From: a phage
Length of the DNA stretch: 64,000 nucleotides
Direction: 5' to 3' (one strand)
Sequence record: PZ212788.1
This document shows, in pieces, positions 59,842-64,000 of this stretch. A program made the translations under genes and the position numbers. Each line of letters opens with the position of its first letter. Positions within the stretch are counted from its first letter, which is position 1. The notes under the pieces were generated by a model. That model saw only the letters and a list, made by a program, of their open reading frames with translations, ran no database searches and was not told the DNA's origin.

Positions 59842-60289
59842 TACTGTAGCGGGAGATTTAATCTCCCTTTTTAAGAGCGGTGCTGGTCACCTGATCCACG
59901 GTTGTAACTGCTTTCATACAATGGGTGCAGGCATAGCGAAAGATATTGCCCGTGAGTTCCCTCAAGCACTGGCAGCCGACAAAGAGACTGCCTATGGTAA
60001 TCTGGACAAGCTGGGTATGTTTTCTTGTTGGGAGCATTTTGCCAAGAACAGGGTCGTATATGGAATCAACCTGTATACCCAGTTCTACCCAGGGCCCAAT
60101 GCTGAATACTTCTCAATAATGAAAGGTTTTGAGCGAGTCAACGAGGTATTCAAAGGTGTGTCATTGCCGTTCTACATTCCTAAAATTGGATGCGGTATTG
60201 GCGGTCTAAAGTGGGAACATGTAGAAGATGTAATTAATCTTGCAACCACAGATATTGATGTGGTTGTAGTAGAGTACAAAAAGTGTTGA
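59831..60289 (+). CDS. macro domain protein (ADP-ribose binding/processing)
   Basis: HLIHGCNCFHTMGAGIAKDIA matches the macro-domain NAAN..L..GGGVA.AI region; later KIGCGIGGLKWEHV matches the G.GI.G motif; GTG start. Confidence 0.6.
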   Translation: MIIDTVAGDLISLFKSGAGHLIHGCNCFHTMGAGIAKDIAREFPQALAADKETAYGNLDKLGMFSCWEHFAKNRVVYGINLYTQFYPGPNAEYFSIMKGFERVNEVFKGVSLPFYIPKIGCGIGGLKWEHVEDVINLATTDIDVVVVEYKKC

Positions 60290-61790: not shown

Positions 61791-62116
61791 CAGAGATCAT
61801 CATTTCAACTGCAGGGTATGTATTCCTGACAATCATTGCACTGGCTATTTTGGTGACAGTGTATGGGTTTGTTATCCTTCCTATCCTTGAGACATTTAGT
61901 TTGTGTCGGTGTTGGAGAAAAGCTTACGGTCCACAACCATGGAAGGACTGGCCCCACCTGGTGCGCTTAGCGTTCTCTTATGCTTACGATCACTCCAGTA
62001 GTGCATGCATAACCGGATACCACGCCCACAACTGGAGCTGGGAAGGGTTGAGGAAATGGAATGTTACAAAGACCATACCTCTGCGCATGTACAAACCTAA
62101 AAACAAAGACAACTGA
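61787..62116 (+). CDS. membrane protein
   Basis: N-terminal hydrophobic helix AGYVFLTIIALAILVTVYGFVILPIL; GAGGAGG RBS. Confidence 0.45.
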   Translation: MTEIIISTAGYVFLTIIALAILVTVYGFVILPILETFSLCRCWRKAYGPQPWKDWPHLVRLAFSYAYDHSSSACITGYHAHNWSWEGLRKWNVTKTIPLRMYKPKNKDN

Positions 62117-62640
62117 TACTTGAAAATTCCTGGCATATCAAGTATAAGGGGGATTTCTAAAATGGATTTCCTCCTTTTGATATTTCACCGGGCTGGATAT
62201 TTTAAAATTCTTAGAAAATCAGAAAATGGATCGAAAACTAAAATGGATTTTTCAGAGTAGGCGCGACAAGCTGAATAACTCATCCTATCGTTTGCACCAT
62301 ATTCCAGGCCACCATTATAGATTTCCCACACATGCTAACCTCTCTCTACTAGAACTTCCTCCACTTACCCTTGACCTTCTATGGTAACAATCTAACCGCT
62401 ATCTTGAAGTTGCGGTGCAGCTTTCCAGGTACTCGATCTACTTTTCATTTCAGGGCTTGGATTTTCTGAAAATTTTTCTCGATAAATTTCTCAGTACTCG
62501 ATCTGTTTTTCGTTTTCTGAATCGGATTTTCTGGAAATCGTTCCGGCTCTCAACCTGAAATTTTTGGGGACGAAATCGATTTTTCGTTTTCAGAAATGGA
62601 TTTTTAAAATTTCTATATGGGAATATTTTAGTGGATACTA
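62116..62640. repeat. repeat-dense non-coding region (iteron-like direct repeats and hairpin), candidate origin or terminus
   Basis: No ORF over about 600 bp; AAAATGGAT(T/C) at 62158, 62221, 62238, 62591; ACTCGATCT twice; GGATTTTCTG(A/G)AAAT twice; TTTCGTTTTC(T/A)GAA twice; inverted repeat ATACTTGA/TCAAGTAT at 62116-62145. Confidence 0.55.
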
Positions 62641-62665
62641 TTTTATAGTAAATTGTTACGGAGGG

Positions 62666-62683
62666 TAATTAGCGTGCTAATTA
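62666..62683. promoter_or_regulatory. perfect 8-2-8 palindrome TAATTAGC-GT-GCTAATTA (operator-like)
   Basis: Read directly from sequence; lies about 40 bp upstream of the first Fur-box-like site. Confidence 0.35.
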
Positions 62684-62720
62684 AATTTATTAAATGCGAG
62701 GAGTTCTCATTTAGAATTTT

Positions 62721-62735
62721 GAATGATAATCATTC
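62721..62735. promoter_or_regulatory. Fur-box-like palindrome GAATGATAATCATTC
   Basis: Perfect 7-1-7 palindrome; core AATGATAATCATT identical to the centre of the enterobacterial Fur box GATAATGATAATCATTATC. Confidence 0.5.
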
Positions 62736-62851
62736 TCGTTTGCAGAATAACGGGCAGGCCCGGTGATTGTCTCCCGGCCCCTGTTGCCCCGGCTTGTTAT
62801 TATAGTATCACACAGGACAAAGAAAGCAAGGATTTTTTGCATAAATTTTTA

Positions 62852-62866
62852 AATGATAATGATAAC
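62852..62866. promoter_or_regulatory. second Fur-box-like element AATGATAATGATAAC
   Basis: Tandem GATAAT/GATAAC hexamers, preceded by TTGCAT at 62837-62842; followed by TTCTC..TTT..TGCAG as after the first element. Confidence 0.4.
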
Positions 62867-63278
62867 CGTTCTCATTTTATGCAGCGCCCATCCCCAGTGG
62901 TTGTCTCCCCCGTCACCGGTGCCTGCCGTCCTTTCGATAGGTATATTGTGCCACCTGGCGGGGCCGCTGTCAACACCTTTCAAAAAAAAAAAATTATAAC
63001 CAGGTGCGCCCACTGCCAGGACCTGGCGGGGGAGAGTGAAAGCTTGCAAACCTGGTAGGGCTATGCTATAGGGTAGGCAACAACTGGAGAGGAGGTACAA
63101 AAATGAAAGGTAATATAATCCCCTGGAAAATGTAGCGACTAATGACGCTGAGGCTATCGCCATGGTTGAAAAGGCTATGGCGGGAGCGTTGGAACATAAA
63201 GAAGAGTACGAAAAAATGGTGGTTAACCTGGCGGGGGCGGCAGGTGGATTCTATCATAAAAATAATTTAAAATAGTCG

Positions 63279-63306
63279 TTGACAACAAGGTTAATCATGG
63301 TATTAT
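63279..63306 (+). promoter_or_regulatory. strong sigma70-like promoter (TTGACA-16-TGgTATTAT)
   Basis: Consensus -35, extended -10 TGg TATTAT 63298-63306; about 50 nt upstream of ATG 63357. Confidence 0.6.
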
Positions 63307-63356
63307 TACCCTACAAGGTGAACAACACCGCACTAACCAGTAAAGAGGATAAATTT

Positions 63357-63554
63357 ATGAACGCATACGGGATCAAAGTACGTCGCAACACTCGCCAGGT
63401 GGTCACCAATCAAGTGATTTGCCGGGTGGATGTAACCATCAACAACGGGCAAGGCCTTTATAAATTTCGTCGCGGTCATAGCTATACCCTGCAACAGCTT
63501 AATCGTTGCGCCCTGACAAAAGGTCAGATCAACCACTGGTTTAATAAAAAATAA
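63357..63554 (+). CDS. small basic protein (66 aa)
   Basis: Track ORF trimmed to ATG 63357 (AGAGGA RBS) downstream of promoter. Confidence 0.45.
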   Translation: MNAYGIKVRRNTRQVVTNQVICRVDVTINNGQGLYKFRRGHSYTLQQLNRCALTKGQINHWFNKK

Positions 63555-63557
63555 GTA

Positions 63558-63586
63558 TTGACATACAGTCAGACACCAAATACACT
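63558..63586 (+). promoter_or_regulatory. sigma70-like promoter (TTGACA-17-TACACT)
   Basis: Consensus -35 63558-63563; -10 63581-63586; upstream of ATG 63619. Confidence 0.5.
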
Positions 63587-63618
63587 AAAAGCACAAAAGA
63601 CACTAAGAGGATAAAATC

Positions 63619-63999
63619 ATGAAAACCACTACCTTTAATTTTGATAATGCAGACTTTTCTTTTTCTGATGTCAAGAACTGCCGCCGTGATCGTGGATTTT
63701 ACAAGGCTTATAATCTGGTGGGCCTGGACGATGACAATAATTTGCACGAAGTAGCTGAGATCCGGTATTATGCCGCCGCCAGCGGGAACACTTACTACTG
63801 CGTTTTTTGGATACACGACAACAAGAACAACAAGTACGGCTATACTGGCGGCAAGGCGAGCGGTCACGGTTATGATAAAGCTAACGCAGCACTTGAGAGC
63901 GCATTAAATGCTATGGGGATCACTGCCGACGGCTGGATCTACGAAGAAGAGTTTTTGTCGGCACTTGCTGACCACCTAGGCTATAAAAAGCACATTGTA
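63619..63999 (+). CDS. hypothetical protein, 3' end beyond window
   Basis: ATG 63619 with AGAGGA RBS; open frame (MKTTTFNFDNADFSFSDVKN...) runs to window end; not in supplied track because no stop codon. Confidence 0.45.
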   Translation, partial: MKTTTFNFDNADFSFSDVKNCRRDRGFYKAYNLVGLDDDNNLHEVAEIRYYAAASGNTYYCVFWIHDNKNNKYGYTGGKASGHGYDKANAALESALNAMGITADGWIYEEEFLSALADHLGYKKHIV

Positions 64000-64000
64000 A

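Follow-up and report, generated by a model that had tools for sequence, protein, structure and literature searches.

At promoters of the rrnB P1 type, the -35 hexamer is preceded by an A/T tract at about -38 to -56, the upstream (UP) element, in which a T-run is followed by one or two bases and an A-run; its consensus, reportedly AAAWWTWTTTTnnAAAA in work by Estrem et al. in 1998, is said to lie at about -40 to -60. Host sigma-70 consensus promoters placed in series before small, homologue-less genes on one strand are found in the T4 early, T7 class I and T5 pre-early and early regions, and promoters also prime or activate replication, as at the T7 primary origin with its tandem promoters 1.1A and 1.1B, at T4 oriF and oriG, and in the case of ColE1 RNA II. 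For phage rV5, host sigma-70 promoters have been proposed genome-wide, together with a T4-late-like motif for the structural genes (PMC3606486). Here we consider one end of a 64,000-nucleotide stretch of record PZ212788.1 (the window, to which all coordinates refer), which comes from an rV5-like phage of the genus Vequintavirus with 92-98% identity to its relatives. An original prediction, made from the sequence of the window, had pointed to a 12-nt A-run at 62982-62993 followed by small genes and two promoters, and had read the whole as a host-takeover early region. The run is there as described, and is best explained, judging from its sequence, as the A/T-rich UP-like element of a conserved leftward promoter, P_B, which is unannotated in any record and is new relative to both the original prediction and the rV5 paper.

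Read leftward, the run forms part of the sequence T12-GAAAGGTG-TTGACA-GCGGCCCCGCCAGGTGG-CACAAT, from which transcription is predicted to start at about 62938 (Table 1). Promoters were scored by their matches out of 12 to TTGACA (-35) and TATAAT (-10), with the hexamers 16-18 nt apart, and by this measure P_B is one of just three minus-strand sites of at least 10/12 between 36 and 64 kb, in an orientation opposite to that of the gene array. Conservation within the genus was assessed in 14 Vequintaviruses, namely the window and 13 aligned relatives. The -35 hexamer, the 17-nt spacing, the TG and -10 positions 1, 2, 4, 5 and 6 are constant in all 14, position 3 of the -10 alone varying (C, T or A), and these positions next to the tract are better conserved than the neighbouring genes. 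The tract itself occurs in 14/14 Vequintaviruses, as T7-T14 or as A4-6T5-7, in either form followed by GAAA(A/G)GTG-TTGACA, and in all 29 phages examined; the length of the run is not conserved (A7-A14, or mixed A/T), which corrects the original prediction on this point. The order T12-G-AAA(A/G)-GTG-TTGACA, with the tract directly upstream of the -35 hexamer, is that of the rrnB P1-type elements. Such a UP-like sequence was found in every one of the 14 Vequintaviruses, in a register shifted by 1-2 nt from the consensus, and with a T-run that varies in length between phages. Two rightward readings of the A-run were rejected, one as part of a promoter (no suitable hexamers) and the other as a plus-strand terminator (no T-run). 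An A-rich 'AAAAGTG' flank also precedes other strong promoters of this phage, e.g. those at 60286 (AAAAAGTG-TTGACG) and 36230.

P_B has counterparts outside the genus. The distant set comprised 15 phages of the genera Phapecoctavirus, Mydovirus, Seunavirus, Certrevirus and Henunavirus, with five representative genomes (ESCO5, Mydo, SSE121, CR3 and Hena1); it was enlarged with a 16-mer from the conserved non-coding block of these genera (see below), which brought in more viral contigs, including nine from true relatives other than the five genomes. In bacterial genomes the 16-mer gave chance matches in unrelated G+C-rich genomes alone. All 15 distant phages possess a minus-strand promoter of 9-11/12 situated 17-22 nt before the conserved block, with an upstream flank of 58-79% A+T; examples are TTGACA-N17-TATACT in ESCO5 and TTGACG-N17-CATAAT in CR3. 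Scored on the plus strand, the corresponding 140 nt stay below 9/12 in all but two phages, and those two reach 9/12. Insofar as the position is kept while the hexamers and spacer differ between genera, it is the function, and not the sequence, that appears to be conserved. A second leftward promoter lies 6-7 nt before the base of the unit A hairpin (described next) in each distant genus examined.

The DNA into which P_B points is itself strongly conserved. Among Vequintaviruses, 62680-62980 is near-invariant, with flanking genes that differ by about 10%; beyond the genus, a sensitive search found a core of about 60-150 nt alone to be conserved, always in unannotated sequence, and ESCO5, Mydo, SSE121, CR3 and Hena1 each have a gene-free gap of 0.7-1.3 kb at the same place. 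The rV5 map carries a 'non-coding' box (PMC3606486). Within the window, the region contains two paralogous units, A and B (repeat families D4 and D5), each with a leftward promoter, a hairpin and a Fur-box-like sequence. The unit B hairpin folds at -17.9 kcal/mol in the minus sense compared to -11.3 kcal/mol in the plus sense, and the hairpin loop is conserved as GAGACAA(U/C)CAC (GAGACAAYCACC; plus-strand forms GGTGATTGTCTCC and AGTGGTTGTCTCC). Across genera, A-U to G-C exchanges occur in the outer stem of unit A, for which 40 of 42 cells pair in the minus sense (8 as G-U) versus 34 of 42 in the plus sense, and 13 of 17 sequences fold more stably in the minus sense. In the other genera, the P_B-equivalent promoter would drive a block of about 90 nt with 94% pairing and four pairs showing compensatory double changes; the covariation score of this block is 0.209, compared to 0.074 in shuffles (0/500) and at most 0.063 when the helices are slid. 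The helices of unit A and of the ~90-nt block were specified by hand (the variable hairpins misalign in automatic alignments), and on hand reading a further helix in the block, CCACC/GGUGG, was rejected because variants break its pairing. The ~90-nt element (CTACCGGCGATCCACC ... GCCCCGCCTTTTCGCCGTGGGGTGGCG, with a variable apical hairpin) occurs in Phapecoctavirus, Mydovirus, Seunavirus, Certrevirus and Henunavirus (L014:2645-2760, L015:2673-2788, L016:2640-2755, L017:2638-2753 and L018:2645-2755 in our locus numbering), and Vequintavirus has the duplicate of unit A instead. Complementarity also exists between the two units (5' arm of B, 3' arm of A), by which one leftward transcript could close a domain of about 170 nt. 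Overall, the DNA downstream of P_B appears to behave like sequence coding for a leftward-sense RNA.

Searches for known relatives of this region were negative. Rfam 15 gave no gathering-score match in the window, chance-level matches in 61900-63400 and no match at E <= 1 in the five distant loci, and no transfer RNAs were found in the window. The interval 62680-63080 has no blastn match in any of the complete E. coli genomes, and is therefore not captured host DNA; candidate targets with complementarity to the conserved loop were no commoner in the window than expected by chance. Two open reading frames (ORFs) that cross the region were rejected as genes. The 111-amino-acid (aa) ORF at 62723-63058, annotated as a coding sequence in several relatives (e.g. 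Gotham F10B_0202 and ECML-10 'ORF 198'), very probably encodes no protein, given that its frame is broken by the variable A/T run and, in rV5_ev156 (L006), by a 1-nt deletion, and that its conservation has no codon pattern. A 30-aa rightward ORF at 62674, which follows GGAGGG, differs non-synonymously in relatives (EE to KK), has no counterpart in other genera and is probably not a gene; it starts with GTG here and with ATG in most relatives, and crosses the first Fur-like box.

The Fur-box-like sequences were compared with the 19-bp E. coli Fur consensus, GATAATGATAATCATTATC. The palindromes span 62693-62745 and 62849-62878; other Fur-like matches in the window reach 13-14/19, and shuffled windows average about 20 sites of at least 13/19. 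Other genera carry a perfect 19-bp palindrome, AATGAGAATCATTCTCATT, in one to four tandem copies per phage. The 15-16/19 match, known here from sequence, is like that of the Fur boxes at Fur-repressed promoters such as ryhB, but unlike these the boxes here follow the leftward starts by 60-85 nt and do not cover a clear promoter; the only rightward promoter that they overlap is a weak TTGAAT-N18-CAGAAT, which is not kept in unit B. Neither RyhB nor any E. coli chromosome resembles the Fur-like region, and a literature search found neither origin mapping nor a report of Fur boxes in rV5-like phages.

With moderate confidence, we favour the view that the interval is a junction in the rV5-like genome, at which ordinary rightward early-type cassettes stand beside a conserved, unannotated leftward promoter with A12 as its UP-like element. 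P_B would fire away from all neighbouring genes into the conserved non-coding region of about 1 kb, and its transcript would comprise, in order, the loop hairpin, a Fur-box-like palindrome, the second promoter-hairpin-palindrome unit and three iteron-like repeats. As for the product, our first guess would be an RNA, either non-coding and structured or serving as a primer, that belongs to a control or origin region. A more speculative extension, which we offer tentatively, is that tandem leftward promoters, the outer of which the A/T tract would mark, in several Vequintavirinae genera and in a Phapecoctavirus (Stephanstirmvirinae) make structured non-coding RNAs that run through Fur palindromes toward iteron-like repeats, in an RNA control or replication-priming locus that could couple the phage to host iron. 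Several observations count against the favoured view. A tract length of 7-14 is loose for a position-dependent element, and homopolymers may vary without function; the tract also comes after a conserved strong minus-strand hairpin, as in a terminator. The terminator scan of the window found neither a terminator nor a defined 3' end for the leftward RNA, and the window's second leftward promoter has a poor 19-nt spacer. Regarding RNA structure, RNAalifold gave weak consensus structures on the raw automatic alignments, the two strands came out level in the G-U test of the other-genus block, and the predicted leftward RNA of 249 nt folds modestly better than shuffles (z = -2.1). On the rightward side, none of the small proteins has a link to host takeover, and a literature search found no Vequintavirus transcriptome, such that every promoter here is a prediction.

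Table 1. Positions of the features discussed, in window coordinates
Feature	Position	Strand	Description
UP-element-like tract	62974..62993	-	A12 read as T12 + GAAAGGTG; directly upstream of -35
Leftward sigma-70-type promoter P_B	62945..62973	-	TTGACA-N17-TGG-CACAAT, 10/12, extended -10
Hairpin unit B	62881..62926	-	Apical loop GGAGACAACCAC; first structure of the predicted leftward transcript
Fur-box-like sequence	62855..62873		GATAATGATAACCGTTCTC; 16/19 to Fur consensus, best in 64 kb
Hairpin unit A	~62745-62805	-	Paralogue of unit B; repeat families D4/D5
Second Fur-box-like site	62719		15/19, second best in 64 kb
Three iteron-like direct repeats, 47-57 nt	62419-62604		Spaced 65 and 74 nt
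CCWGG-rich, indel-rich inverted repeat	62999..63056		Minus-strand hairpin, then UAUAA + U12
Frameshifted 57-58-aa accessory gene	63086..63275 (including ribosome-binding site)	+	PHROG 21957; intact in most relatives
Rightward promoter, P195A homologue	63279..63306	+	TTGACA-N16-TGG-TATTAT, 11/12, extended -10
Gene for 65-aa strongly basic protein	63357..63554	+	PHROG 7119, function unassigned; ribosome-binding site AAGAGGA 63343-63349
Rightward promoter, P195 homologue	63558..63586	+	TTGACA-N17-TACACT, 10/12
Gene for 132-aa protein, first 127 codons	63619..64000	+	PHROG 7028, function unassigned; ribosome-binding site AAGAGGA 63605-63611

The hairpin beside the tract underlies the strongest alternative, a fair reading that we nevertheless consider less probable: the A12 run could be the U-tract of a leftward intrinsic terminator, whose G+C-rich hairpin stops antisense or leftward transcripts before the non-coding region, a role that may coexist with that of a UP element. 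The original prediction had recorded an imperfect hairpin ahead of the minus-strand T12 and had raised the same possibility. The hairpin is certainly present, with a stable counterpart just before the T-run in all 13 relatives; the 95-nt minus-strand segment that contains it folds at -24.5 kcal/mol, the hairpins of the relatives are comparable or stronger (-20 to -38 kcal/mol for segments of 89-95 nt), and the stem can reach to within 1 nt of the run in several of them. Depending on the lineage, the basal stem is CCTGG/CCAGG or CCAGG/CCTGG, and it pairs in both forms; in Mydo, SSE121 and ESCO5, moreover, the corresponding A/T tract marks the precise end of a genuine leftward gene, about 60 aa long. 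Several points speak against termination. In the window, the stem is unusually long and irregular and is separated from the U-run by 5 nt (UAUAA-U12, compared to UAGAA-U7-14 in relatives), the terminator scan did not call the hairpin and T-run, and in half of the relatives the run is mixed (A5-6T5-7), with just 5-7 U left. Moreover, the genera that have the leftward gene lack, on hand reading, a hairpin before their tract, and Vequintaviruses lack a leftward gene to the right of it; the best minus-strand promoter right of the hairpin in the window is a 9/12 site at 63737, none reaching 10/12, and there is therefore no evident transcript to terminate.

Mydo (L015:2826-3011, minus strand) and SSE121 (L016:2794-2976, minus strand) have in common the ~60-aa leftward gene (MENxxVxTSETMVTL...), which lies just right of the A/T tract within an otherwise rightward array. 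The leftward ORF that ESCO5 has at this place (L014:2779-2991, minus strand) is 70 aa long and does not evidently resemble that gene. The Vequintavirus hairpin may be a remnant of the leftward-gene unit of these phages. The interval 62954-63122 is also the window's densest cluster of CCWGG (Dcm/EcoRII) sites, with seven in about 170 nt that form the inverted-repeat arms and part of the leftward promoter spacer; the window as a whole is not depleted of CCWGG (107 found versus 86 expected).

A different role for the region, which we judge unlikely, is that the tract and 62120-63100 act as DNA, as a replication origin with iterons, palindromes and an A/T unwinding tract, in which the promoters serve for activation or priming only. 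The iteron-like repeats share the core GTACTCGATCT..TTTTCGTTTT..GGATTTT, four copies of TTTCTAAAATGGATTT occur across 62154-62603, and similar triple repeats are present in SSE121, CR3 and Hena1; from their sequence, the repeats at 62419-62604 are a possible replication origin. The tandem palindromes, the two tandem promoters reading toward the repeats and the non-coding gap at the same place in all genera fit this arrangement, as does the fact that skew analysis did not locate the rV5 origin (PMC3606486). Tandem promoters leading into repeat-bearing, A/T-rich non-coding DNA resemble the T7, T4 oriF/oriG and ColE1-type origins, and the leftward transcript would begin with conserved stem-loops, as in transcription-primed origins; the promoters here are host-type, and the Fur-box-like palindromes have no counterpart in those systems. 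Twelve A/T pairs are, furthermore, short for an unwinding element, and the compensatory changes and G-U asymmetry favour helices formed in RNA.

We regard as similarly improbable that the A-run has no function, being a slippage-prone homopolymer in an A/T-rich spacer between divergent units, next to a promoter-like site that is incidental or vestigial. The free variation of the tract in length and composition among close relatives, and the indel-rich, decayed-looking DNA directly to its right, would suit such a reading, which accounts poorly for the presence of an A/T tract in every phage examined, for a -35 hexamer, spacer length, TG and key -10 positions that are conserved better than the neighbouring genes, and for the recurrence of a promoter with an A/T-rich flank at the equivalent position in five other genera despite sequence turnover.

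The weakest alternative concerns the DNA to the right of the tract, where the original prediction had listed 10-aa and 37-aa ORFs: that these function as distinct micro-genes within an early host-takeover set is very hard to credit, since the Shine-Dalgarno-like sequences of both (GGAGAGGAGG before 63103, GAGG 9 nt before 63162) are set against a joined frame that gives a 57-58-aa protein intact in most relatives, a split due to a single-base difference in a C-run that is shared only with the closest relative, and the deletion or truncation of the gene in other relatives. Both ORFs exist where they were placed, but as two halves of one gene. The ribosome-binding site (RBS) at 63086-63095 precedes an ATG at 63103, from which a 10-aa stub runs to a TAG at 63135, and the 37-aa remainder (63162-63275) is a restart by the ORF finder at an internal Met. 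The break falls in the C-run at 63120-63123, which is C4 in the window and in E. coli O157 typing phage 14 and C5 in most relatives, and the gene is therefore split into stub and remainder. In phage Gotham, the counterpart of 63103-63275 is one intact gene of 57 aa; LL12 lacks it, JohannBauhin has a 39-nt in-frame deletion and ECML-10 a 3' deletion. Sequence comparison thus identifies 63103-63275 as one dispensable accessory gene broken by a C5-to-C4 frameshift, which makes it a pseudogene in this phage, although a homopolymer sequencing error is possible. On the former reading, this phage lineage has lost the gene by a one-base deletion in the C-run.

Further to the right, the two near-consensus promoters of the original prediction are confirmed at 63279 and 63558. 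Such sites are commoner than shuffles predict, with 24 of at least 10/12 on the plus strand between 36 and 64 kb compared to 4.4 +/- 1.9 per strand in shuffled sequence. TTGACA is invariant at both positions in the 13 relatives, and changes in the -10 hexamer retain A2 and T6. Both promoters are ordinary and were already predicted in 2013, as P195A and P195 in Table S4 of the rV5 paper (PMC3606486, Kropinski et al. 2013). The P195A sequence of rV5, TTGACAGCTCGGACAGTTCTTGTTATTCT, is identical to that of the relatives aligned with window 63279, the window copy having a different spacer and a better -10 (TGG-TATTAT, N16), and P195, TTGACATATAGTCCGACACCAAATACACT, is identical to relatives L003 and L006 at window 63558. 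The leftward promoter at 62973 is missing from the list in that paper because only sequences upstream of genes were searched.

The promoters are followed by two genes that are confined to this phage group. The basic protein, given as 66 aa by the original prediction, is 65 aa (66 codons including the stop), with 12 K+R versus 1 D+E; an AlphaFold2 model shows a small beta-barrel at a predicted local distance difference test score (pLDDT) of 76, with no significant structural match. Many database entries lengthen this gene to 85-95 aa by placing the start codon (ATG or TTG) within the promoter of the gene, and its 5' leader, ACAAGGTGAACAACACC, is better conserved than the promoter spacer (63279-63356). 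The larger ORF, which does run off the window as originally noted, begins at ATG 63619 and exits five codons short of its end (132 aa in relatives). Neither protein has an informative homologue or fold, and none is similar to known host-shutoff proteins.

The layout from 63279 rightward, with host-type consensus promoters and small genes without known homologues, may reasonably be taken for the usual look of a phage early region, by analogy with the T4 early, T7 class I and T5 pre-early and early regions. The layout recurs in annotated relatives, where small genes, almost all labelled 'hypothetical', follow one another rightward over a long stretch and most have a predicted promoter in front. 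From 63279 there would be a long rightward unit in which every strong host sigma-70 promoter, with its A-rich upstream flank, leads to a strong RBS and a small gene; without terminators between the cassettes, the rightward transcripts would be nested and additive. By the same analogy, the cassettes would be expressed early by unmodified host RNA polymerase, a timing that we infer from promoter type and gene content. Unlike the terminal first-step-transfer segment of T5, the present region is internal and adjoins DNA-metabolism genes. Of the proposed host-takeover region, therefore, the series of promoter, RBS and small gene on one strand holds, but no protein is tied to takeover.

With 62000-64000 as the query, megablast matched 122 phage records, all from rV5-like myoviruses; the alignment extends over most of the query in 113, and the top match is typing phage 14 (98% identical). 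Two sets of database entries stand out. The 16 GenBank 'Campylobacter phage' records in the range MG065646-MG065674, with C. jejuni as host, are 93-94% identical to E. coli Vequintaviruses here, which suggests a misassigned host or coliphage contamination. A plasmid search with the non-coding core had a sole match, the 137.6-kb CP057073.1 (137,565 bp), described as a 'non-mobilizable E. coli plasmid'; it has the size of a Vequintavirus genome and probably represents a phage that was entered in the database as a plasmid.

In its original form the observation is a routine one, with promoters already predicted in 2013 and small genes of the kind that phages typically carry without a known function. 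Correcting the micro-ORFs to one broken gene avoids a false micro-gene annotation. The A-run nonetheless flags an unannotated leftward promoter at the edge of a non-coding region of about 1 kb, which is better conserved than any other DNA in its part of the genome. That region is common to at least six genera of therapeutic-candidate phages, of which members are available in common collections (rV5, BASEL Bas48-59). Its role, whether as a structured RNA, in replication priming or as an iron-linked switch, is the only part of the locus with real potential for novelty.

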